The position numbers and the translations under genes were made by a program. The notes under the pieces are model-generated. The model ran no database searches and was not told the DNA's origin. It was given only the letters and a program-made list of their open reading frames with translations. From Escherichia coli (lineage in GTDB: Bacteria > Pseudomonadota > Gammaproteobacteria > Enterobacterales > Enterobacteriaceae), in the NCBI RefSeq assembly GCF_965641715.1, contig NZ_OZ282453.1: a DNA stretch of 64,000 nt. The stretch is one strand, 5' to 3'. Of this stretch, positions 11,494-64,000 are shown one piece after another (position 1 is the stretch's first letter; each line of letters starts with the position of its first letter).

Positions 11494-11570
<77 letters not shown>

Positions 11571-11603
11571 TCACCGTACTGCTTTTACTTCATCAAATTT
11601 GAT

Positions 11604-11680
<77 letters not shown>

Positions 11681-11713
11681 TCACCGTACTGCTTTACTTC
11701 ATCAAATTTTAAT

Positions 11714-11790
<77 letters not shown>

Positions 11791-13124: not shown

Positions 13125-13310
13125 ATATGACAGGGTGAGGGGTAACCTCACATCCTGATTATTGACTAAGTGCGCGTTGTTCATGCCGGATGCGGCGTGA
13201 ACGCCTTATCCGGCCTACAAATCATGCAAATCCAAAATATTGCAGGAGTTATGTAGGCCTGATAAGCGTAGCGCATCAGGCATTTATGCGTTTAGGGTGA
13301 GGGATAACCT
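13125..13310. repeat. BIME-like cluster of REP palindromes between mltA and tcdA
   Basis: gccggatgcggcgtgaacgccttatccggcctac and gtaggcctgataagcgtagcgcatcaggc REP units flanked by gtgaggggtaacctcac-type palindromes. Confidence 0.6.
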
Positions 13311-16275: not shown

Positions 16276-16481
16276 AAAAAAAAGCACCGCAATTAGGCGG
16301 TGCTACATTAATCACTATGGACAGACAGGGTAAATGTACAGGAAGTGAAAAAAGGTAGCTTTGCTACCATGGTCTGAATCGCAGACCAATTGCAAACACA
16401 ACAACACAACATCACAACCGTAAGCCAAAAGTTCACCAGAACACGCATTCCGACAAAACTTTTCGTTCCGGCTCAGGAAGT
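16276..16481 (-). ncRNA. gcvB: GcvB small regulatory RNA (Hfq-dependent, represses amino-acid/peptide transporters)
   Basis: Minus-strand sequence starts ACTTCCTGAGCCGGAACGAAAAG, contains the GU-rich TGTGATGTTGTGTTGTTGTGTT region, and ends in a GC hairpin plus U8; divergent from gcvA. Confidence 0.85.
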
Positions 16482-34652: not shown

Positions 34653-35019
34653 GTCGACAGGGAGTCAGACAACGAAGTGAACATCAGGATGATGACACTT
34701 CTGAAGGACACACCAGGATGGTGTTTCAGGGAAAGGCTTCTGGATGAAGCGAAGAGGATGACGCAGGACGCGTTAAAGGACACCTCCAGGATGGAGAATG
34801 AGAACCGGTCAGGATGATTCGGTGGGTCAGGAAGGCCAGGGACACTTCAGGATGAAGTATCACATCGGGGTGGTGTGAGCAGGAAGCAATAGTTCAGGAT
34901 GAACGATTGGCCGCAAGGCCAGAGGAAAAGTTGTCAAGGATGAGCAGGGAGCAACAAATGTAGCTGGAATGCTGCGAAACGAACCGGGAGCACTGTGAAT
35001 ACAGTGCTCCCTTTTTTTA
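34653..35019 (+). ncRNA. csrB: CsrB small RNA (CsrA-sequestering RNA)
   Basis: Starts GTCGACAGGGAGTCAGACAACGAAGTGAAC; about 18 GGA-containing CAGGAUG-like motifs; ends in hairpin gggagcactg...cagtgctccc plus T7. Confidence 0.9.
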
Positions 35020-35063
35020 TTCCTGCTATCCTTCGCGGCAGTTTTTCTTATTGAGGTTGCTTT

Positions 35064-53493: not shown

Positions 53494-54642
53494 TCACCAA
53501 CGGCCGGATGAACCGCCGCCTCCTGAAGAACCGCCACCACCGCGGAAAGAATTCCTCGACGAAGAGCGAGAATGAGCATTACGATTCCCCGTTTTCCTGT
53601 TGCTTTTTTCTCCTGACCCCAGCTTAAGATTGCCAGTAAATTTGGCCACAATGATCAGCAGAACGATGCCAGCAATGGTTATTGGGCCGATAAAATGATC
53701 AATTAACCCAATAATTGTTGAGATGAATGCAATATCTTTATTACTGGCGAACACCAGGCACCATCCCACAATAATTATCAGCATCACGACAAACAATGAA
53801 TTTCGTCCTGATTCACGAACCTGCGGAGTCTTCTTTTGTTTTTTCACTTTAGCGTTTTTATTTTTTGGGGCCAGCATCATAGGAAATACGCGGCACAAAT
53901 TAAAAACTACCGCGAGACGCTGCTTGCAGGTTGTTGCTAACAATAAACTAAAACAAACGACCGATACCCGCCGAATGATGACATCGTCCTGAAAGGAGAA
54001 AAACCAGACCATAGGGGTAATCATCGATATCATCCATATGCCACGCCGTGGGCGGCTGGCAAATCGCCAGAGGACAACGATGGCAACGATCATCAGCAGT
54101 GTCCAGGCAAGACATGGCAGCGAACGTTGCGGATTAGCAAACAGATGATTGGCTAAAGCATCCAAAGGGCTAAGGTTCGCTTTGATATGGGTAAACTGTG
54201 CGATGCTTTCAATTCCGCCCGTTAATCCAGCAAAGAGATTGTTTTTTTCGAATTCTGGCTGCATATGGTAACGAACAATTTGCGCAGCTTGTTCCGGCGG
54301 CAACATCTCTTCCAGTCCATGTCCAATCTTCATTGACGCCAGCCCTTCCGGCCATACGACGAGAATTAAGATACCTTCGCCATATCGCTTCTCTCCAACG
54401 GGTTTCCAGTGATATACCCCGTATCTCTGCGAGGCTGCAAGTTTAATGTTTTTGCCCCCTGTGGTCGGCGTAACCAACACGGCCACCTGGAAGTGGTTTT
54501 GCTGCTCGAGAGTCTGTAATTGTTGAGTTAAAGCAGTTTGTTCTTCTGTCGTTAATGTCCCGGTTAAGTCAGTCACTGAAGGCAATCGTTCAGCGAATAC
54601 CTGAAAACCGCATAGCATCAGAAGTAAGAGAAAAATACGCAT
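53494..54642 (-). CDS. TPM-domain membrane protein, divergent paralog 2 with long polytopic C-terminal region
   Basis: 382 aa; signal peptide; TPM-like N-terminal domain; several hydrophobic segments; tail ...RGGGGSSGGGGSSGRW; 5-nt gap to paralog 1 start. Confidence 0.75.
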   Translation of the reverse strand: MRIFLLLLMLCGFQVFAERLPSVTDLTGTLTTEEQTALTQQLQTLEQQNHFQVAVLVTPTTGGKNIKLAASQRYGVYHWKPVGEKRYGEGILILVVWPEGLASMKIGHGLEEMLPPEQAAQIVRYHMQPEFEKNNLFAGLTGGIESIAQFTHIKANLSPLDALANHLFANPQRSLPCLAWTLLMIVAIVVLWRFASRPRRGIWMISMITPMVWFFSFQDDVIIRRVSVVCFSLLLATTCKQRLAVVFNLCRVFPMMLAPKNKNAKVKKQKKTPQVRESGRNSLFVVMLIIIVGWCLVFASNKDIAFISTIIGLIDHFIGPITIAGIVLLIIVAKFTGNLKLGSGEKSNRKTGNRNAHSRSSSRNSFRGGGGSSGGGGSSGRW

Positions 54643-54656
54643 ATCAATTCCTTTTG

Positions 54657-55550
54657 TTACCAGCGCCCGGAAGCGCCACCGCCACCAGATGAACCGCCAC
54701 CACCGCTGAAATTGTCATTGTTGAATGAAGAGGATGACGATGATGAATAGTGGGAGGAAGAATTGCTTCTTGTATGGCGTGATGGCTGGTTGACATCACG
54801 CATCAAATCCCGAACTTTTTTGCCGAAGGGGGTAAAAGCGATGGCGACAGCCAGGAACGGTGTGGCGAAGCAGAGTAATGTTGCGAGTACTCCCCAGCTT
54901 CCGCTGAAGCCTGCTATAGGTAAAACAAAGGCCAGTACAATAGCTGCGAAGCAAATTACTCCCAGCGTTTTGATATATCCTCTGGCAGAAATAAACGTCA
55001 GTACTATCGCCCAGACTAACAATGCCCACCAACCGCTAAAGGGCAAAGGGTGATCGGTCGGTGTTATCGTTGCTAAATTATTCCCCGTAAGACGACTTTC
55101 AATATCGCTGATCCCCTTTTGTAAACCGCCAGCCAGGTCGCCTTTTTTAAATGCAGGAATAATACTGTTGCGAATAATTTTCCCGGACTGTGCATCCGTA
55201 ATAATACCTTCCAGCCCGTAACCGATTTCAATACGCACGGTATGATCCTGCCAGGCGACTAACAGTAGAACGCCATCATCACGGTCTTTATCACCCGGTT
55301 TCCAGCTATCGAATACCCGCGTTGCGTACTGCTCGATGGTTTCATCGCCTGTTGTATCAACCACTAACACGACCAACTGTGCGTGGTTTTTTTGCGTCAG
55401 GGCTTTAATCTGGTTGGTCAGGGTGTTTACTTCGCTGTTTGTTAATGTGCCGGTTAAGTCATTCACATACTTGGGGGATTCAGGTACTGGAATTTGTGTG
55501 GCAAACACAGATGAACAGAAGAAAGCCATAAGGAAGATAAAATTTCGCAT
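54657..55550 (-). CDS. TPM-domain membrane protein, YgcG family, paralog 3
   Basis: ORF track 54657-55580; likely start at MRNFIFLMAFFCSSVFA (55550); shares IEQYATRVFDSWK and RIEIGYGLEG blocks with paralog 1; tail ...SGGGGSSGGGGASGRW. Confidence 0.8.
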   Translation of the reverse strand: MRNFIFLMAFFCSSVFATQIPVPESPKYVNDLTGTLTNSEVNTLTNQIKALTQKNHAQLVVLVVDTTGDETIEQYATRVFDSWKPGDKDRDDGVLLLVAWQDHTVRIEIGYGLEGIITDAQSGKIIRNSIIPAFKKGDLAGGLQKGISDIESRLTGNNLATITPTDHPLPFSGWWALLVWAIVLTFISARGYIKTLGVICFAAIVLAFVLPIAGFSGSWGVLATLLCFATPFLAVAIAFTPFGKKVRDLMRDVNQPSRHTRSNSSSHYSSSSSSSFNNDNFSGGGGSSGGGGASGRW

Positions 55551-55563
55551 AGAACTTCCCCGC

Positions 55564-56184
55564 TTAATGAGCATTAGCATTCTGGCTAAAATCTATTGTT
55601 GGGGCTTTACTTACTGCGGCGACATCATCCGGTAAATAATTTTTCTTTGGCGTGTAATCCATGACCTTTGCGGTTAATACAGCGGGGAATTTGCGGATAG
55701 TGACATTATATTGTTCAATGGCTTTAATATATCTTCCTCGCGCAACGGCAATTCTATTTTCACTTCCTTCGAGCTGTACCATTAAGTTTTGATAGAGCTC
55801 TTGAGCCTTTAACTCAGGGTAACGCTCACTAATTATCGTTAACTGACCGAGAGTGCGAGTCACCTGCGCCTGGGCCTGTTGCCAGGCTTGTAATTTTTGT
55901 GCATCTCCGGGAGCTTGCTGAAGATCGCTGCTGGCGCGATTAGCCTGGCTACGAGCCAATGTTACGGCTTCCAAAACGTCTTTTTCATGGTTGGAATAAC
56001 CTTTAATACTGGCGACAAGATTAGGAATAAGATCGGCGCGACGTTGATATTGATTTAATACCTCAGACCAGGAGGCGTTAACCTGCTCATCATAGGTTTG
56101 AATATCGTTATATCCACAGCCTGATAAATTGAAAATAAATATAATTACGATGAATATCCTGAGCATGTTTAAATCCTTTTTCAT
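55564..56184 (-). CDS. lemA: LemA-family lipoprotein
   Basis: 206 aa; lipobox NLSGC; LemA blocks QRRADLIPNLV, ERYPELKA, GSENRIAVARGRY; stop lies 13 nt upstream of TPM paralog 3 start. Confidence 0.8.
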   Translation of the reverse strand: MKKDLNMLRIFIVIIFIFNLSGCGYNDIQTYDEQVNASWSEVLNQYQRRADLIPNLVASIKGYSNHEKDVLEAVTLARSQANRASSDLQQAPGDAQKLQAWQQAQAQVTRTLGQLTIISERYPELKAQELYQNLMVQLEGSENRIAVARGRYIKAIEQYNVTIRKFPAVLTAKVMDYTPKKNYLPDDVAAVSKAPTIDFSQNANAH

Positions 56185-56338
56185 TAATTCCTTAAAACAT
56201 AATACGCCGCTTCATTTTATTCTTTATGATCTAATGCACTTTTTGCCTTAAACCTGCCTGTAACAGAATGTTAATAAGACATGATTGTTGCGGCAGGATC
56301 TGCAATAATTAACAATTATCCACTTCACAGAGAATGCT

Positions 56339-57010
56339 ATGCAGTACCCGATTAACGAGATGTTCCAGACCCTGCAAGGTGAGGGTTACTTTACCGGCGT
56401 CCCCGCCATTTTTATTCGTTTACAGGGATGCCCGGTTGGCTGTGCCTGGTGCGACACCAAACACACCTGGGAAAAGCTTGAGGATCGGGAAGTCTCCCTT
56501 TTCAGCATTCTGGCGAAGACCAAAGAGAGTGATAAGTGGGGGGCGGCGAGCAGTGAAGACTTGTTGGCTGTCATTAGTCGCCAGGGATACACCGCGCGGC
56601 ATGTGGTGATTACGGGTGGTGAGCCTTGCATTCATGATTTGCTACCACTGACTGATCTGCTCGAAAAGAACGGTTTTAGCTGCCAGATCGAGACCAGTGG
56701 TACTCATGAGGTACGCTGTACACCGAATACCTGGGTTACCGTATCGCCAAAGCTGAACATGCGCGGCGGCTATGAAGTGTTGTCACAGGCACTGGAGCGA
56801 GCCAACGAAATCAAGCACCCAGTGGGACGCGTACGTGATATTGAAGCACTGGATGAACTTTTGGCGACGCTGACCGATGATAAACCGCGAGTCATTGCAC
56901 TGCAGCCGATTAGCCAAAAGGATGATGCCACACGTTTGTGCATTGAAACCTGCATTGCGCGTAATTGGCGTTTGTCGATGCAAACCCATAAATATTTAAA
57001 TATTGCCTGA
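56339..57010 (+). CDS. queE: 7-carboxy-7-deazaguanine synthase (radical SAM)
   Basis: 223 aa with CPVGCAWC cluster motif; recognised as QueE/YgcF. Confidence 0.9.
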   Translation: MQYPINEMFQTLQGEGYFTGVPAIFIRLQGCPVGCAWCDTKHTWEKLEDREVSLFSILAKTKESDKWGAASSEDLLAVISRQGYTARHVVITGGEPCIHDLLPLTDLLEKNGFSCQIETSGTHEVRCTPNTWVTVSPKLNMRGGYEVLSQALERANEIKHPVGRVRDIEALDELLATLTDDKPRVIALQPISQKDDATRLCIETCIARNWRLSMQTHKYLNIA

Positions 57011-57149
57011 TTAAACATTTATAAGCGTTATAAATGGGTGGAACCTGTGAAGACTTCTACTCATTTATATTCTTTGTCGTCTCTGAAAAACATCCATTTT
57101 GCCCATCCTGAACTAATCATTATCATTCTCTACAAATTCTGTGGCGTTA

Positions 57150-57348
57150 ATTTTTCGTTGGAGTGAAAATTATTGCGGTAAAGTTTGGTAGATTTTAGTT
57201 TGTATAGAGTTATTTTAAATATTTACCTTTTTAATCAATGGGTTAAGTGCTCTTTAACATAATGGATGTGTTGTTTGTGTGATACTGTAAAGTTGGTAGA
57301 TTGTGACTGGCTTAAAAAATCATTAATTAATAATAGGTTATGTTTAGA
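57150..57348 (+). promoter_or_regulatory. CRISPR leader (AT-rich, promoter and integration-host-factor region)
   Basis: AT-rich stretch ending ...tggtagattgtgactggcttaaaaaatcattaattaataataggttatgtttaga immediately 5' of the first repeat. Confidence 0.65.
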
Positions 57349-58353
57349 GAGTTCCCCGCGCCAGCGGGGATAAACCGGGCGACCGGCAGGCGGCCTATGC
57401 GTTTTTCACGAGTTCCCCGCGCCAGCGGGGATAAACCGGGGCATTAGAATAACTTAAATGGAAAAAGAAAGAGTTCCCCGCGCCAGCGGGGATAAACCGG
57501 CCTTATCTCTGCTTGGATTCTCTGCTGATGTGAGTTCCCCGCGCCAGCGGGGATAAACCGCGGCGCACACGTTGTATTTGTGCTGCCTATGCGAGTTCCC
57601 CGCGCCAGCGGGGATAAACCGCCCACCAGCGCGTTTTTTGCCGGGGCCATAGTGAGTTCCCCGCGCCAGCGGGGATAAACCGGCAATGCTCGTACGCCGT
57701 CTCACTCCGCGTGAGAGTTCCCCGCGCCAGCGGGGATAAACCGCGGGGGCGCGGGGTGTGGACGCATTCACAGCAGAGTTCCCCGCGCCAGCGGGGATAA
57801 ACCGTATATGCAGTGCTGACAGACCGGGGGGCGCAAGAGTTCCCCGCGCCAGCGGGGATAAACCGGCAACGCAGGAACCGCAGGCGGTTCGTCATCTGAG
57901 TTCCCCGCGCCAGCGGGGATAAACCGCTTGCCGCGCCAGGGTATTTTTGTGTGGTCGTGAGTTCCCCGCGCCAGCGGGGATAAACCGTCCGCAACAACTC
58001 AGAGAACCAGACACCAAGCGAGTTCCCCGCGCCAGCGGGGATAAACCGTTTCGCCGCCGGGAAAATTTATATTAACGTTGGAGTTCCCCGCGCCAGCGGG
58101 GATAAACCGCGAAGCACGTCGGGGACCGTAAGGCGTTTGAAGAGTTCCCCGCGCCAGCGGGGATAAACCGCAATCCACGCCGAAGCGCTGGAAATGGAAA
58201 AAGAGTTCCCCGCGCCAGCGGGGATAAACCGTTTACCTGCTCGGTGATATCGTCCTGCAAATCGAGTTCCCCGCGCCAGCGGGGATAAACCGGGTACAAA
58301 AGAGGCCCCATTCTGGCAGGGCTCAAGTTCCCCGCGCCAGCGGGGATAAACCA
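57349..58353 (+). CRISPR. Type I-E CRISPR array: 17 repeats of 29 bp, 16 spacers of 32 bp
   Basis: Repeat GAGTTCCCCGCGCCAGCGGGGATAAACCG with exact 61-bp period from 57349; terminal repeat degenerate (AAGTTCCCCGCGCCAGCGGGGATAAACCA, 58325-58353); leader at the 57349 end sets + orientation. Confidence 0.97.
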
Positions 58354-58824
58354 CCATATAACCCATTATCTCTTTCTCAAGTTTTTATATTAGCAGTACT
58401 CGTAATAAGCAACATATCCACGTAACACCTCATGTTCAGAATAGCTCGCCATATATGAGAAGTTCACAATTATCGATACAAAAAATTAAATTTAATCAAA
58501 GTGTTATTTGTATGATGCTTAAACCGTTAAGAAATTTTCATATATTATTTTTTTTAATGTTGAATTAATGTCTATTAATTTTTTCTTCAGGATAATAGTT
58601 TGTTTTTTAAGCTTGTTATTCATTGATTAAGTAATAAATCAGAAAAATTGTCTTTGTTTTGAGGCTAATGAGTGGTTTTACATAACCGCCTCTATACGCT
58701 GTTGATGAATAGTTCTTATGAATAAAGATATCCAGTTCATACTTTAAGTGAAAATTGATAAAGTGCGATTCGTATTGTCTTTTATTCTAAAGACATCGAG
58801 TGTAGTTAATATTCCTTGTAAAAA

Positions 58825-58884
58825 CAGGGATAAACCGAACTAGTTAAAGTTTTTATTATGTTCCCCGCGTCAGCGGGGATAACC
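58825..58884 (+). CRISPR. Degenerate CRISPR repeat remnant (decayed second mini-array)
   Basis: cagggataaaccg (58825-58837), 22-nt spacer-like gap, then gttccccgcgtcagcggggataacc (58860-58884); preceded by a second AT-rich leader-like stretch. Confidence 0.6.
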
Positions 58885-58931
58885 ATTCAGGTATGTTCAG
58901 GCCGGGCTGTTTCCCGCCCGGCCTTCCTCAC

Positions 58932-60410
58932 TTACGCATTCGACCAGCTCTGGATCGAATCCGCATTTCCCAATTCCCCATGCATCACTTCATACGATTT
59001 TTTCAGAATCACATCAGTATGTTTGGTTAGGTCTTTGAAAATGCCTTTATTCATCGCGTCGTAGCGTTTGGCATTGCTCTCAATCGGTATAAAGATATCT
59101 TTCACGCGAACCATTTTATCGACAGCCGTTGCGTAATCCGGGTATAGCCCCAGACCTACCGCTGTATTAATCGCTGCCCCCAGACTTGCACAACCGTTAA
59201 TGGCGTTACGTCGTGCCGGAAGGTTGAACACGTCGGCAAAAATCTGCATAAACAGATCGCTGTTCGAACCGCCGCCAGTAATGATTACATGCTTCGCAAA
59301 GTGATTCATTTCATTACACATATTGTCGTAATTGTTCTTCAGCGTCAGCGCCACGCTTTCCAGTATCGAACGATATATCCATGCGTAATCCATGCTGGAA
59401 TCAAAGCCGATCATAATCCCGCGTTTGTACGGTTCCCACGGATTGGTCAGCCAGTCCAGCACCGTCATCAGCCCATTACAGCCAGGTGGCACACTAGAGG
59501 CTTTCTTGTTGAGTAAATCTTCCGGTGAAAGATCCTGCGCCCTGGCATCCTGAATTAACGACTCGCCTAACATGTCGCGCAGCCAGCTCACCGTCCACAT
59601 GCCTTTGCGAATACCGTAACCTTCATACAGCAATGTTTGCGGAATAGAAGACATAATCGGCCAGTACGCCACCGGATCTTTCGGCAGTGCTTTGCCGTTC
59701 ATCATCAATGCGATGTAAGTGCCAAGAGAAATTACCGCAGTTTCATCATCCAGTAATCCGGCCCCCAGAGCTTCTACCGGTTTATCACTGGTGGTACAAA
59801 CAACCGGCAGCCCTGCCGGGAAATGTGTCGCCAGCGCGGCTTGTGGTGTGATCTGTCCAAGAACAGTGCCTGGCATTTGCACATCAAACAGCATATGACG
59901 GGGGATATTAAACTTCTCCATGACTGCGGCATCTTCACTCCATGCCCAGCTCTTATAATCCACCGGCCACTGACCAAAATAGTTGGCGATATTGTCTTTA
60001 AACTCGCCGGTTAAGCGATGCGTCAGATAACCCGAAAAAGAGGTGACATAGGCCACGTCAGGATTAGTGTGTTCGTAGGGACGCGTTACGCGTGCATCCT
60101 GCCAGCTAATCAATGGCGCAGCTGGCGTGCCATCGGCTTTCAATAACGCACGGCAGCAACGGATGGATCCCAGACCAATAACGACAATATCTTCTTTATT
60201 CCCGGCAAACTGACTCATCAAATCGTGACCGGCAAAACATAATGATGCCCATAAATCGTCGTCAGGATGTTCTGCGGTATCGGCATCTGGCGTGTGCATC
60301 GGCTGCAATAAACCTTTGCCTTCGCAAACCACGTTACCTTCCAGATCGTACATCACCACTTTTGTGCTCTGACTTCCGCCATCAATCCCTATGATGTATT
60401 TCTTCGACAT
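58932..60410 (-). CDS. ygcE: FGGY-family carbohydrate kinase, substrate unknown
   Basis: 492 aa with FGGY N- and C-terminal domains (GIDGGSQSTK start). Confidence 0.85.
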   Translation of the reverse strand: MSKKYIIGIDGGSQSTKVVMYDLEGNVVCEGKGLLQPMHTPDADTAEHPDDDLWASLCFAGHDLMSQFAGNKEDIVVIGLGSIRCCRALLKADGTPAAPLISWQDARVTRPYEHTNPDVAYVTSFSGYLTHRLTGEFKDNIANYFGQWPVDYKSWAWSEDAAVMEKFNIPRHMLFDVQMPGTVLGQITPQAALATHFPAGLPVVCTTSDKPVEALGAGLLDDETAVISLGTYIALMMNGKALPKDPVAYWPIMSSIPQTLLYEGYGIRKGMWTVSWLRDMLGESLIQDARAQDLSPEDLLNKKASSVPPGCNGLMTVLDWLTNPWEPYKRGIMIGFDSSMDYAWIYRSILESVALTLKNNYDNMCNEMNHFAKHVIITGGGSNSDLFMQIFADVFNLPARRNAINGCASLGAAINTAVGLGLYPDYATAVDKMVRVKDIFIPIESNAKRYDAMNKGIFKDLTKHTDVILKKSYEVMHGELGNADSIQSWSNA

Positions 60411-60436
60411 GATTTTTCTCCTGTAATTTTCCTGGC

Positions 60437-61714
60437 TTACTTGCTGCTAGCCATTGCGGGGGCGCTATCAGCAGTACGAATTTTTTGGAACAGCAAAAAG
60501 GTAAAGACAATCACCATGGCAAGCGCCGCCATGCCCATCAGCCACATATTGCGGTAGGCTTCTGCTGCGGGCAGGGTGTCTTGCCAGTGGCCGATAATGG
60601 GGTAAACGAAGACATCCGGCAGGAATCCAATCACCGAGCAAATACCTACCGTGGTGCCCATAATGTAAGACGGTGTTCTCGCTTCGCCAGGGCAGGCCCA
60701 GTACAGCCCGCGTGAGGCGTAACAGGTGAATCCCAGCAGTAAAATCAGGCCAATCCCCATCGCGACCGATTGCGGGTTAGAGTTCGTGACGAGCAGGGCA
60801 GTTAACGCCAGCAGGCCGAGTACGGAAAGGATTTGGATCACGCGGGTAGGGGATTTCACTTTGCTGTAGGTGGTGATTATGCCGCCAAGTGGGCCGCACA
60901 GCGCGCGGAAGATTTTGTTGATCACAATCCCCATGTAGCTCGCCGCCACCAGCGACATGCCGTACATTTCGGTCAGATAGTTGGTGGAGTAACTCAGAAT
61001 GGCGTAGATGGTGAAGACACCAAAAATCACCATGCTGCAATACCAGGTGGTACTGATACGCAAAACGGCCAGGATATCGCTAAGCTGGAATGACTGTTTT
61101 TCTTCGTTATTGGCACTGCGCTGGTTGTTGTTATCGCTAACAAAAAACCAGCACAGAATCCCCAACAAGATGTAAACCACACTATAGATGATAATGACCG
61201 TTTTCAGGCTGGTGCTGTCATCCGGTGCAAAGCGAGAAAAGACCCACATGGTAAACACTGCCAGCGACATTACACCGACGCCGCGCAGCCCTTCCATCCA
61301 GCCCATAATTTTCCCTTGCTCGCTATGATCGCCAAGCAACGAGGCGGCTTTAATCGACACCGACCACAGCATTAAAATCGTTGTTATCGCAAAGGCGACC
61401 TGAATACAGAGCATTACCCACAGCGGTGGATACGTTGCCATTAACAGACCCAGTAATCCGGTAATGATCATCGCGGAAGTAATCATTTTGCGGTGTGAAA
61501 ATTTATCGGCAATAACGCCGCTGGGGGCATAAAGAATAATAGCTGCAATACCAAAGGTACTCATTATTAAACCTATCTCGGTATTGCTGAATCCCATAAA
61601 TTTCGCCATGGGAATTTGATAAATATAACGTAAATAAGCCAGGTCGAAACTAACGCCGCCGCTAAAACTAATTATCGCGAGGGTTATCCAACGGCGATAT
61701 GAGTTGTGTTGCAT
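60437..61714 (-). CDS. yqcE: MFS transporter, substrate unknown
   Basis: 425 aa, 12 predicted TM helices. Confidence 0.85.
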   Translation of the reverse strand: MQHNSYRRWITLAIISFSGGVSFDLAYLRYIYQIPMAKFMGFSNTEIGLIMSTFGIAAIILYAPSGVIADKFSHRKMITSAMIITGLLGLLMATYPPLWVMLCIQVAFAITTILMLWSVSIKAASLLGDHSEQGKIMGWMEGLRGVGVMSLAVFTMWVFSRFAPDDSTSLKTVIIIYSVVYILLGILCWFFVSDNNNQRSANNEEKQSFQLSDILAVLRISTTWYCSMVIFGVFTIYAILSYSTNYLTEMYGMSLVAASYMGIVINKIFRALCGPLGGIITTYSKVKSPTRVIQILSVLGLLALTALLVTNSNPQSVAMGIGLILLLGFTCYASRGLYWACPGEARTPSYIMGTTVGICSVIGFLPDVFVYPIIGHWQDTLPAAEAYRNMWLMGMAALAMVIVFTFLLFQKIRTADSAPAMASSK

Positions 61715-61960
61715 ATCGTATTCCCATTTGTAATAGACAAAAAAAAGAGAAAAGTAAGCCGCCCTTTCAGGTGGATTACTTTTCTCAGGTCTCTAGTAAT
61801 TGAAATAATAAATAACATGGAAAGCAGAGGTGTTGTGTGAGAGTAATCACGCTTCTGCTTTTTAAAACTATTTGATAATGCGAATATCACACTGTGATTA
61901 CGATCACATTAGCAGTTATGTCCTTATGCTACAAATTATCTCCAGTTACCAGAGATAATG

Positions 61961-62009
61961 AGAAAGGTAACTTCCCTCTCGCGGGGGAAGTTACCTTTCT
62001 TTTTTTTTG
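61961..62009 (+). terminator. Terminator-like hairpin plus T9 in the ygcW 5' leader (candidate attenuator)
   Basis: agaaaggtaacttccc-tctcgcgg-gggaagttacctttct (16-bp perfect stem) followed by ttttttttt; ends 24 nt upstream of the ygcW ATG. Confidence 0.6.
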
Positions 62010-62032
62010 CCTTACGGAAATTGGAGCTAACT

Positions 62033-62818
62033 ATGTCAATCGAATCTCTCAATACGTTCTCAATGGATTTTTTCTCCCTGAAAGGTAAAACCGCAATTGT
62101 TACCGGCGGGAATAGCGGTTTAGGCCAGGCATTTGCCATGGCGTTGGCCAAAGCAGGCGCAAATGTCTTTATTCCAAGTTTTGTCAAAGATAACGGCGAA
62201 ACAAAGGAAATGATTGAAAAACAGGGTGTTGAGGTGGACTTCATGCAGGTGGATATCACCGCAGAAGGCGCGCCGCAGAAGATAATCGCCGCCTGTTGCG
62301 AACGTTTCGGTACCGTCGATATTCTGGTTAACAATGCCGGTATTTGTAAGCTGAATAAGGTGCTGGACTTCGGTCGTGCCGACTGGGACCCGATGATTGA
62401 TGTGAACCTGACCGCCGCATTCGAGTTAAGCTATGAAGCGGCAAAAATTATGATCCCGCAGAAAAGCGGTAAAATCATTAATATCTGTTCATTATTCTCT
62501 TACTTAGGTGGACAATGGTCACCTGCATATTCTGCCACTAAACATGCTCTTGCCGGATTCACCAAAGCTTATTGTGATGAACTAGGTCAATATAATATTC
62601 AGGTAAATGGTATTGCCCCTGGCTATTATGCAACAGATATTACGCTGGCGACACGCAGTAATCCAGAAACCAATCAGCGCGTTCTTGATCATATTCCAGC
62701 AAACCGTTGGGGCGATACTCAGGATTTAATGGGCGCAGCCGTATTCCTCGCAAGTCAGGCATCGAATTATGTCAACGGGCATTTATTAGTGGTCGATGGC
62801 GGTTATTTAGTGCGCTAA
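62033..62818 (+). CDS. ygcW: Short-chain dehydrogenase/reductase (KduD/FabG-like)
   Basis: ORF track starts 61958; likely true start MSIESLNTFSMDFF at 62033 with GGAG RBS; TGGNSGLG Rossmann motif and YxxxK. Confidence 0.85.
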   Translation: MSIESLNTFSMDFFSLKGKTAIVTGGNSGLGQAFAMALAKAGANVFIPSFVKDNGETKEMIEKQGVEVDFMQVDITAEGAPQKIIAACCERFGTVDILVNNAGICKLNKVLDFGRADWDPMIDVNLTAAFELSYEAAKIMIPQKSGKIINICSLFSYLGGQWSPAYSATKHALAGFTKAYCDELGQYNIQVNGIAPGYYATDITLATRSNPETNQRVLDHIPANRWGDTQDLMGAAVFLASQASNYVNGHLLVVDGGYLVR

Positions 62819-62887
62819 TCCATAACGGTGGTTTCTGTTTTCTCTTATTAATGATTATTCCATTTTTATTATCAGGAAGGAATTACT

Positions 62888-64000
62888 ATGTCTTTATCTC
62901 GCGCAGCGATTGTCGACCAGCTAAAGGAAATTGTTGGTGCAGATCGCGTAATTACCGATGAAACAGTATTAAAGAAGAACAGTATTGACCGTTTTCGTAA
63001 ATTTCCGGATATTCATGGCATTTATACTTTGCCGATTCCGGCAGCGGTCGTAAAACTCGGTTCCACAGAGCAAGTATCCCGTGTGCTGAATTTTATGAAT
63101 GCGCACAAAATTAACGGTGTGCCGCGTACCGGTGCTTCCGCCACCGAAGGTGGGCTGGAAACTGTTGTAGAAAACTCGGTGGTGCTCGACGGTTCCGCCA
63201 TGAATCAAATCATTAATATTGATATTGAGAATATGCAGGCGACGGCGCAATGTGGCGTTCCGCTGGAGGTGCTGGAAAACGCGTTGCGTGAAAAAGGTTA
63301 CACCACGGGGCATTCTCCGCAGTCAAAGCCGCTGGCGCAGATGGGCGGCCTGGTAGCAACTCGCAGTATCGGGCAGTTCTCCACACTCTACGGCGCAATC
63401 GAAGATATGGTCGTTGGTCTGGAGGCAGTGTTGGCAGATGGCACCGTCACACGCATTAAAAACGTGCCACGCCGCGCGGCTGGCCCGGACATTCGTCACA
63501 TCATCATCGGCAACGAAGGTGCATTGTGCTATATCACTGAAGTAACAGTGAAAATCTTTAAATTCACCCCGGAAAACAACCTCTTCTACGGCTATATCCT
63601 GGAAGACATGAAAACCGGCTTCAACATCCTGCGTGAAATCATGGTGGAAGGGTATCGTCCGTCGATCGCTCGTTTGTATGACGCTGAAGATGGCACCCAA
63701 CACTTCACCCATTTTGCCGACGGAAAATGCGTGCTGATCTTTATGGCTGAAGGTAACCCTCGCATTGCGAAGGCGACGGGCGAAGGGATTGCGGAAATCG
63801 TTGCCCGCTACCCGCAATGCCAACGCGTGGACAGCAAGCTGATCGAAACTTGGTTTAACAACCTGAACTGGGGACCGGATAAAGTGGCTGCCGAACGTGT
63901 GCAGATCCTCAAAACCGGCAACATGGGCTTTACTACCGAAGTGTCCGGCTGCTGGAGCTGTATCCACGAAATCTACGAAAGCGTTATTAACCGTATTCGT
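62888..64000 (+). CDS. ygcU: FAD-linked oxidoreductase (GlcD / FAD-binding type 4 family), 3'-truncated by window end
   Basis: Open frame from ATG 62888 (MSLSRAAIVDQLKEIVGADRVITDE...) to the window edge; absent from the ORF track because no stop lies inside the window. Confidence 0.8.
   Translation, partial: MSLSRAAIVDQLKEIVGADRVITDETVLKKNSIDRFRKFPDIHGIYTLPIPAAVVKLGSTEQVSRVLNFMNAHKINGVPRTGASATEGGLETVVENSVVLDGSAMNQIINIDIENMQATAQCGVPLEVLENALREKGYTTGHSPQSKPLAQMGGLVATRSIGQFSTLYGAIEDMVVGLEAVLADGTVTRIKNVPRRAAGPDIRHIIIGNEGALCYITEVTVKIFKFTPENNLFYGYILEDMKTGFNILREIMVEGYRPSIARLYDAEDGTQHFTHFADGKCVLIFMAEGNPRIAKATGEGIAEIVARYPQCQRVDSKLIETWFNNLNWGPDKVAAERVQILKTGNMGFTTEVSGCWSCIHEIYESVINRIR

Follow-up and report, generated by a model that had tools for sequence, protein, structure and literature searches.

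A CRISPR array occupies positions 57349–58353 of the 64-kb window (the whole 64,000-nucleotide stretch of Escherichia coli DNA analyzed here), and an initial annotation made from the sequence noted that it was accompanied by no cas genes. The locus thus raises two questions: whether the array is an orphan or is served by proteins encoded elsewhere in the genome, and what its spacers record. We consider it very likely that this array is the CRISPR-II array already known from E. coli, carrying a strain-specific set of spacers, with Cas proteins supplied in trans from the CRISPR-I locus outside the window.

An exact scan found 16 perfect copies of the 29-bp repeat GAGTTCCCCGCGCCAGCGGGGATAAACCG on the plus strand, starting at 57349, 57410, and so on at an exact period of 61 bp until the last copy, which starts at 58264 and ends at 58292. 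The 17th repeat, AAGTTCCCCGCGCCAGCGGGGATAAACCA, at 58325–58353, differs from the others at two positions, its first and last bases. All 16 intervening spacers are distinct and 32 nt long, within the 32–33 nt usual for a type I-E array. The same array was recovered independently by a repeat search and by Tandem Repeats Finder, and a 29-mer recurring 17 times without any loss of register greatly exceeds what chance could produce. The initial annotation had reported 17 repeats with an exact 61-bp period, a degenerate terminal repeat, and these same boundaries, all of which proved exact to the base, and the 16 spacers that it listed are letter-for-letter identical to those returned by the scan.

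The repeat itself is of type I-E, as had been proposed, and belongs to the E. coli "type 2" repeat family: GAGTTCCCCGCGCCAGCGGGGATAAACCG is identical to the CRISPR2.1 repeat of K-12 and forms a hairpin. Its predicted RNA fold has a 7-bp GC-rich stem closed by a GCCA loop (−15.1 kcal/mol, z = −3.6), the shape known for Cas6e substrates. A search of Rfam, both over positions 56000–60000 and over the whole window, gave no family at gathering score, including the CRISPR direct repeat families. This result means only that Rfam holds no fitting model for this repeat, and an Rfam match is not a CRISPR-defining feature. Self-targeting was not found within the 64-kb window, where the best match of any spacer outside the array has at least 11 mismatches.

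We next consider where the array lies. The CRISPR-II locus of E. coli is defined as lying between ygcE and ygcF (PMC3903273, PMC10910852), and the array sits in exactly this position. On its leader side is queE (ygcF), a 223-aa open reading frame on the plus strand at 56339–57010 that has the same position in PapM-32-1, 33F4, TUM14771, and K-12. On its trailer side is ygcE, a 492-aa open reading frame on the minus strand at 58932–60410 that is annotated as such in relatives, followed by yqcE and then ygcW. The gene order queE–array–ygcE is also annotated in PapM-32-1, 33F4, TUM14771, D8, and K-12 MG1655.

The stretch between queE and the first repeat (57011–57348, plus strand; 338 bp, 70% A+T) is homologous to the CRISPR2.3 leader of K-12. 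The two leaders are identical at 323 of 339 aligned positions (95%) and at 99 of the 100 nt nearest the repeats, in agreement with the earlier description of a recognizable leader next to queE. A conserved AT-rich leader of the 2.3 type is therefore found on the ygcF side, as in other CRISPR-II loci. The array promoter has been placed in the CRISPR2.3 leader (PMC3903273). A simple sigma-70 scan of the leader returned weak matches only and no convincing promoter.

Beyond the last repeat lies an AT-rich separator (58354–58857, plus strand; 504 bp, 72% A+T) that is 94% identical to its K-12 equivalent and corresponds to the 0.5-kb spacing between CRISPR2.3 and CRISPR2.2 described earlier (PMC3903273, PMC10910852). 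It ends at a CRISPR2.2 remnant (58858–58886, plus strand) consisting of one degenerate solo repeat, ATGTTCCCCGCGTCAGCGGGGATAACCAT, with six mismatches to the consensus. This repeat, which begins 504 bp past the array and whose homologue in K-12 is the second CRISPR2.2 repeat, had been missing from the initial annotation. Presumably, one unit of CRISPR2.2 was lost via recombination between its two repeats. Overall, the flanking genes, leader, separator, and CRISPR2.2 remnant identify the array as the canonical E. coli CRISPR-II (CRISPR2.3) array of the type I-E system.

This identification changes how the missing cas genes are to be read. The tblastn queries against the 64-kb window were two full sets of eight Cas proteins, one for each E. 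coli type I-E variant: the K-12-like set from 33F4 and the other set from PapM-32-1. No type I-E cas gene was found in the window, the best match having E = 0.015 and 25 bits, and the earlier statement that the 64 kb contain no cas gene stands to that extent. As a property of the array, it does not stand. In E. coli, type I-E is always divided between two places, CRISPR-II lying about 17–20 kb from the cas operon (PMC3903273, PMC10910852). From the end of the array to the start of cas3, we measured 16,981 bp in PapM-32-1, 16,727 bp in 33F4, and 16,794 bp in K-12. The window contains only 5,647 bp past the array and ends inside the ygcW–ygcU region, so a normal gap of about 17 kb exceeds the 5.6 kb available and accounts for the cas-less window. 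By synteny, cas3 should lie near window-equivalent position 75,000, about 11 kb past the window end. Because CRISPR-II normally lies about 17 kb from cas, the absence of cas genes from the window is uninformative for an E. coli CRISPR-II array, and orphan status is unlikely on synteny. The initial annotation had itself allowed for cas genes just outside the window.

To place the spacers among known arrays, we scored spacer sharing across 5,426 complete E. coli genomes. A megablast search of the whole array with its flanks against E. coli genomes was dominated by repeat-to-repeat matches and was uninformative on this point; the sharing search used the spacers joined by runs of N. Nine spacers (1, 3, and 7–13) occur in no array among the 5,426 genomes. 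At the opposite extreme, spacer 16 lies at the trailer end of the 33F4, D8, and PapM-32-1 arrays and, among the matches listed, also occurs in O145:H28, O169:H41, and others. Spacers 15 and 16 are common to the D8 and TB06051 arrays, and spacers 14–16 to the PapM-32-1 array. Insertion at the leader end is expected to leave just this pattern, with spacers in common near the trailer and unique ones toward the leader, and spacer 16 is the oldest, "anchor" spacer.

A few of the remaining spacers recur in other settings. An exact copy of spacer 2 lies inside annotated CRISPR features of seven genomes; in TUM14771, the one genome of the seven that was read, it sits in the CRISPR2.3 array among different neighbors. 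Spacers 5 and 6 were found in the cas-adjacent CRISPR2.1 arrays of M217 and M18, respectively, and further genomes match each of them within annotated CRISPR features. A variant of spacer 4, shifted by 2 nt and with one mismatch, is present in arrays of pig ETEC, O139:H1, O169:H41, and 64A:C strains. Identical spacers in unrelated contexts point either to repeated sampling of hot protospacers or to recombination between arrays. Taken as a whole, the spacer allele is one unseen in the complete-genome collection, at an already known locus.

The shared trailer-end spacers also provided a proxy for the cas status of this genome, for which we examined five relatives that carry them. The cas-E operon is complete in PapM-32-1, 33F4, and TB06051 and present in D8 with a frameshifted cas2e. 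In O169:H41 F6326-C1, which shares spacer 16, casA–cas2 have been lost and only a truncated cas3 is left beside IS421, next to CRISPR2.1. With the operon kept in four of the five relatives and lost in one, it is likely, judging from these relatives, that the present genome also has a cas operon.

The strongest competing explanation is that the array is a true orphan, in a lineage that lost the cas-E operon, for example by an IS-mediated deletion, and is now an inert fossil capable of neither acquisition nor interference. The truncated cas3 of O169:H41 F6326-C1 and the frameshift in D8 show the kind of decay that this explanation calls for, cas-less strains that keep their arrays have been reported, and CRISPR2.3 leaders are alike with and without cas (PMC3903273, PMC12736100). 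Against it, four of the five relatives retain the operon, the array is long (16 spacers versus 6 in K-12), its 16 internal repeats are free of mismatches, and the nine spacers found in no other array fit continued acquisition in the lineage. We therefore regard loss of the operon as improbable, though clearly the more credible of the two competing explanations, and favor the reading in which the CRISPR-II array is served in trans by a cas operon at CRISPR-I.

We then asked what the spacers match, searching GenBank phages, PLSDB plasmids, complete E. coli genomes, and IMG/VR and following these searches with a mismatch-tolerant scan of fetched loci. Protospacers matching at 29 or more of 32 positions were found in mobile elements for 9 of the 16 spacers. 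All spacer coordinates below refer to the plus strand.

A single contig of an uncultured phage, IMGVR_UViG_2529293142_000021, contains protospacers for four spacers. Spacer 6 (57683–57714) matches its gene for a 635-aa DNA methyltransferase at 32/32 with an AAG flank. Spacer 10 (57927–57958) matches the same gene at 29/32 with a CAG flank, on the strand opposite the spacer 6 site; the two protospacers are 27 nt apart, and the spacer 10 mismatches fall at positions 1, 5, and 6. Spacer 4 (57561–57592) matches a 119-aa open reading frame just upstream of the methyltransferase gene at 30/32 with a GAA flank, and spacer 12 (58049–58080) matches the tail sheath gene at 32/32 with an AAG flank. The spacer 12 target protein has a PHROG tail sheath match at 1e-98; the spacer itself had no match in species-representative genomes.

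No cultured phage is closely related to the contig. Its tail module is 71–81% identical to those of common E. coli prophages, and part of the stretch that we examined matches nearly every E. coli chromosome (at least 99% in 1,579 records). These similarities lead us to infer that the contig represents a prophage from an E. coli isolate. Spacer 8 (57805–57836) matches the tail fibre gene of a prophage of E. coli TUM13936 at 32/32 with an AGG flank. For spacer 5, a weak lead is the homologous methyltransferase of phage LLS (28/32, CAA flank). Relatives of the IMGVR_UViG_2529293142_000021 phage may be the targets of spacer 5, through the homologous methyltransferase, and of spacer 8, through the tail fibre of a related prophage. 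Four spacers (4, 6, 10, and 12), and possibly five or six, come from one prophage family with a lambdoid head and a contractile tail.

A Rac-like prophage integrated at ttcA in STEC384 accounts for two more spacers. Spacer 3 (57500–57531) matches its exonuclease VIII (recE-like) gene at 31/32 with an AAG flank, and spacer 14 (58171–58202) matches another of its genes at 29/32, also with AAG. Weaker leads for spacer 14 are agt of phi80 (25/32) and runs of 21–22 nt in phi80 and the Serratia phage Scapp. One spacer comes from a P2-family phage and one from an F-like plasmid. The former, spacer 13 (58110–58141), matches a P2-family major capsid gene at 32/32 with an AAG flank, in prophages of seven complete E. 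coli genomes and in one IMG/VR contig. PHROG matches of the target proteins agree for the tail fibre (spacer 8), the exonuclease (spacer 3), and the major head protein (spacer 13).

The latter, spacer 16 (58293–58324), matches traD of plasmid F at 29/32 with an ATG flank, and about 1,500 plasmids match at the 29/32 level. The mismatches to F traD lie at positions 14, 18, and 30, all outside the seed, and two of them fall on every-sixth positions. Cascade does not read the protospacer at every sixth position. The plasmid search was at first swamped by these traD matches and was repeated without spacer 16; the PLSDB matches that then remained, 21–26 nt long and in Bacillus and Sinorhizobium, were rejected as chance-level, the Bacillus plasmid matches of spacer 2 among them.

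Spacers 1, 7, 9, 11, and 15 had no target in any collection searched. A pattern scan of IMG/VR with N at every sixth position returned nothing for spacers 1, 7, 9, 10, and 11; spacer 10, missed in this way, was placed at 29/32 by the mismatch scan. Spacer 1 likewise had no match in species-representative genomes or JGI metagenomes. The initial annotation had suggested that the spacers are strain-specific and record past encounters, and had proposed comparing them with phage, plasmid, and E. coli DNA while checking the adjacent motifs. Both the protospacers in mobile elements and the nine spacers found in no other array support that suggestion: the spacers record that the lineage has met temperate phages and an F-like plasmid. 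Their preference for prophages agrees with a recent survey of E. coli arrays (PMC10910852).

Type I-E protospacer-adjacent motifs (PAMs), namely AAG and also ATG, AGG, or GAG, lie 5′ of the protospacer. Of the nine protospacers matching at 29/32 or better, seven have such a motif (AAG in five, AGG in one, and ATG in one). All five matches with one mismatch or none carry AAG or AGG, and the chance of finding at least five AAG among nine is about 1e-7. That AAG (CTT on the opposite strand) predominates, with a single ATG, is in keeping with the acquisition motifs measured for the E. coli cas-E variants (PMC3737337). Since these motifs lie 5′ of the protospacers in the plus sense, the crRNAs have the sense of the plus strand, and the leader end is the one toward queE. 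Use of the array by another CRISPR–Cas type, such as type I-F at clpA–infA, or its membership in a non-CRISPR repeat family found no support beyond the fact that some E. coli carry type I-F (PMC3903273), and is effectively refuted by a repeat identical to that of K-12 type I-E where type I-F arrays have a different 28-bp repeat (PMC3903273, PMC12736100), by the 5′ AAG, AGG, and ATG pattern of type I-E, and by spacers that are unique and of fixed length.

With the array assigned to the type I-E system, its mode of action would follow established type I-E biology (PMC3903273, PMC3737337). Transcription from the queE-side leader would produce a pre-crRNA, which Cas6e would be expected to cut at the base of each repeat hairpin to give 61-nt crRNAs. 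Cascade loaded with a crRNA would then find PAM-flanked protospacers, with Cas3 degrading the target, and Cas1–Cas2 would insert new spacers at the leader-proximal repeat. All of these proteins would be provided in trans by the cas3–casABCDE–cas1–cas2 operon of the CRISPR-I locus, which by synteny should lie some 17 kb past the array. Priming could be set off by imperfect matches, for example the match of spacer 16 to F traD. Because H-NS normally keeps the type I-E system of E. coli silent, the array probably serves mainly as stored memory.

The distribution of targets bears on whether priming has shaped that memory. Spacers 4, 6, 10, and 12 fall on one prophage and spacers 3 and 14 on the Rac-like prophage, and such clustering (four to six spacers for one prophage family, two for another) is compatible with primed adaptation without proving it. 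That the spacer content documents primed adaptation as it occurred in a wild lineage of E. coli is a tentative proposal, which we think somewhat doubtful. If the clustering does reflect priming and not repeated independent encounters, this lineage had a working type I-E system in nature despite its supposed silencing by H-NS.

For E. coli, descriptions of the locus, including its repeats, its leader, and the distance between it and the cas operon, go back more than a decade. The spacer allele, absent from the 5,426 complete genomes, is usable as a lineage marker, and its targets add one minor example to the published view that type I-E spacers of E. coli are directed mostly against temperate phages and prophages, several of them at one phage family. 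Significance beyond strain typing is little.

Finally, we compared the locus with known systems. Its likeness to orphan arrays, such as that of the cas-deleted O169:H41 F6326-C1, consists in the lack of a cas gene within the available sequence; here, in contrast, that absence follows from the usual 17-kb gap and the position of the window edge, and orphan status is a matter for the whole genome. The likeness to CRISPR-II of K-12 covers the flanking genes and their orientation, the repeat family, the 61-bp period, the leader (95%), and the separator (94%), with an array-to-cas3 distance of about 17 kb that is similar in K-12 and the relatives. The initial annotation had mentioned a short array at this locus in K-12, and indeed CRISPR2.3 of K-12 has 6 spacers compared with the 16 here, with none in common. 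The repeats of K-12 CRISPR2.3 begin with GTG, whereas those in the window begin with GAG. In K-12, D8, and 64A:C, CRISPR2.2 consists of two repeats and one spacer, in contrast to the solo repeat of the window, which is shared by 33F4, the complete genome with the closest flank (99.0% over 5.1 kb). The arrays of PapM-32-1, D8, TB06051, and 33F4 share the anchor spacers at the trailer end with the array described here, whereas all of their leader-ward spacers are different.

Four spacers of the CRISPR2.3 array (57349-58353, + strand), spacers 4, 6, 10, and 12 counted from the leader, all map to one 41-kb viral contig, IMGVR_UViG_2529293142_000021, an uncultured E. coli prophage contig from IMG/VR. 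Their protospacers lie at contig positions of about 12437, 13715, 13773, and 32532, in the parts designated L016 and L018. A single methyltransferase gene holds the protospacers of spacers 6 and 10, which are on opposite strands and 27 nt apart. We sought a close relative of this contig among cultured phages and found none; its tail module shares 71-81% identity with common E. coli prophages.

Spacer 4 (57561-57592) has a shifted counterpart in the arrays of other E. coli (pig ETEC, O139:H1, O169:H41, and 64A:C). The two derive from overlapping protospacers with a 2-nt offset and differ at one base; the corresponding sites are L004 1503-1534, in another E. coli, and L018 2046-2077, on the prophage contig. 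In the sole phage match, the PAM flanks of the two registers are GAA and ACG, neither of which is canonical. Slipped acquisition could explain this pattern, as could a donor that has diverged.

Spacers 5 and 6 (57622-57714) occur with identical sequence in the cas-adjacent array, CRISPR2.1, of other strains, with copies at positions 2501-2532 of both L012 and L013, two loci from those strains. CRISPR2.1 of M217 carries spacer 5 and that of M18 carries spacer 6, with unrelated neighbors in each. Additional genomes match each of the two spacers inside annotated CRISPR features. The presence of these spacers in different arrays could be a result of either independent capture of the same protospacers or transfer by recombination.

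We also examined relatives that share trailer-end spacers with this array. The CRISPR2.3 array of PapM-32-1 (L001 19728-20032) contains an internal duplication, in which the pair formed by spacer TGGGGGCGATTGACGAGCAGGCGCGTACCGTT and spacer 14 is present in two copies with one spacer in between. Two strains that have the anchor spacer in common carry damaged cas genes: O169:H41 F6326-C1 (L022 7764-11609) has lost casA-cas2 and retains a truncated cas3 adjoining IS421, and cas2e of D8 (L020 2667-2961) is frameshifted. The cas operon is decaying within the spacer group defined by the anchor spacer.

Among 5,426 complete RefSeq E. coli genomes, the best match to the 5.1-kb flank (58900-64000) is 99.0% identical, and the best matches to the 24.5 kb spanning 39500-64000 reach 98-98.6%, indicating that the source strain is not close to any of these genomes at this locus.

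The CsrB (34662-35021, +), GcvB (16276-16481, -), and ES036 (CssrF; 13218-13260, +) small RNAs, detected with Rfam, fit the K-12-like synteny of the region. A tandem-repeat match at 11494-11790 (-) corresponds to three tandem tRNA-Met (CAT) genes with a 110-bp period, by appearance presumably metZWV.

The eno-queE interval (53494-56184) encodes, on the - strand, a LemA-family protein of 206 aa and two TPM-domain proteins of 307 and 382 aa, whereas that of K-12 contains only yqcG and ygcG. The number and integrity of TPM genes here differ among relatives, and this variable islet adjoins the CRISPR leader. All that is left of CRISPR2.2 is a single degenerate repeat (58858-58886) and, a short distance upstream (near 58826-58836), a small piece of a repeat tail, GGGATAAACCG. 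At this site K-12, D8, and 64A:C each have two repeats and one spacer (GACTTGTTATCATTTTTTAAGTTGTCGAACTT), whereas 33F4, the closest flank relative, shares the solo repeat described here. Recombination between the CRISPR2.2 repeats appears to have removed one unit.
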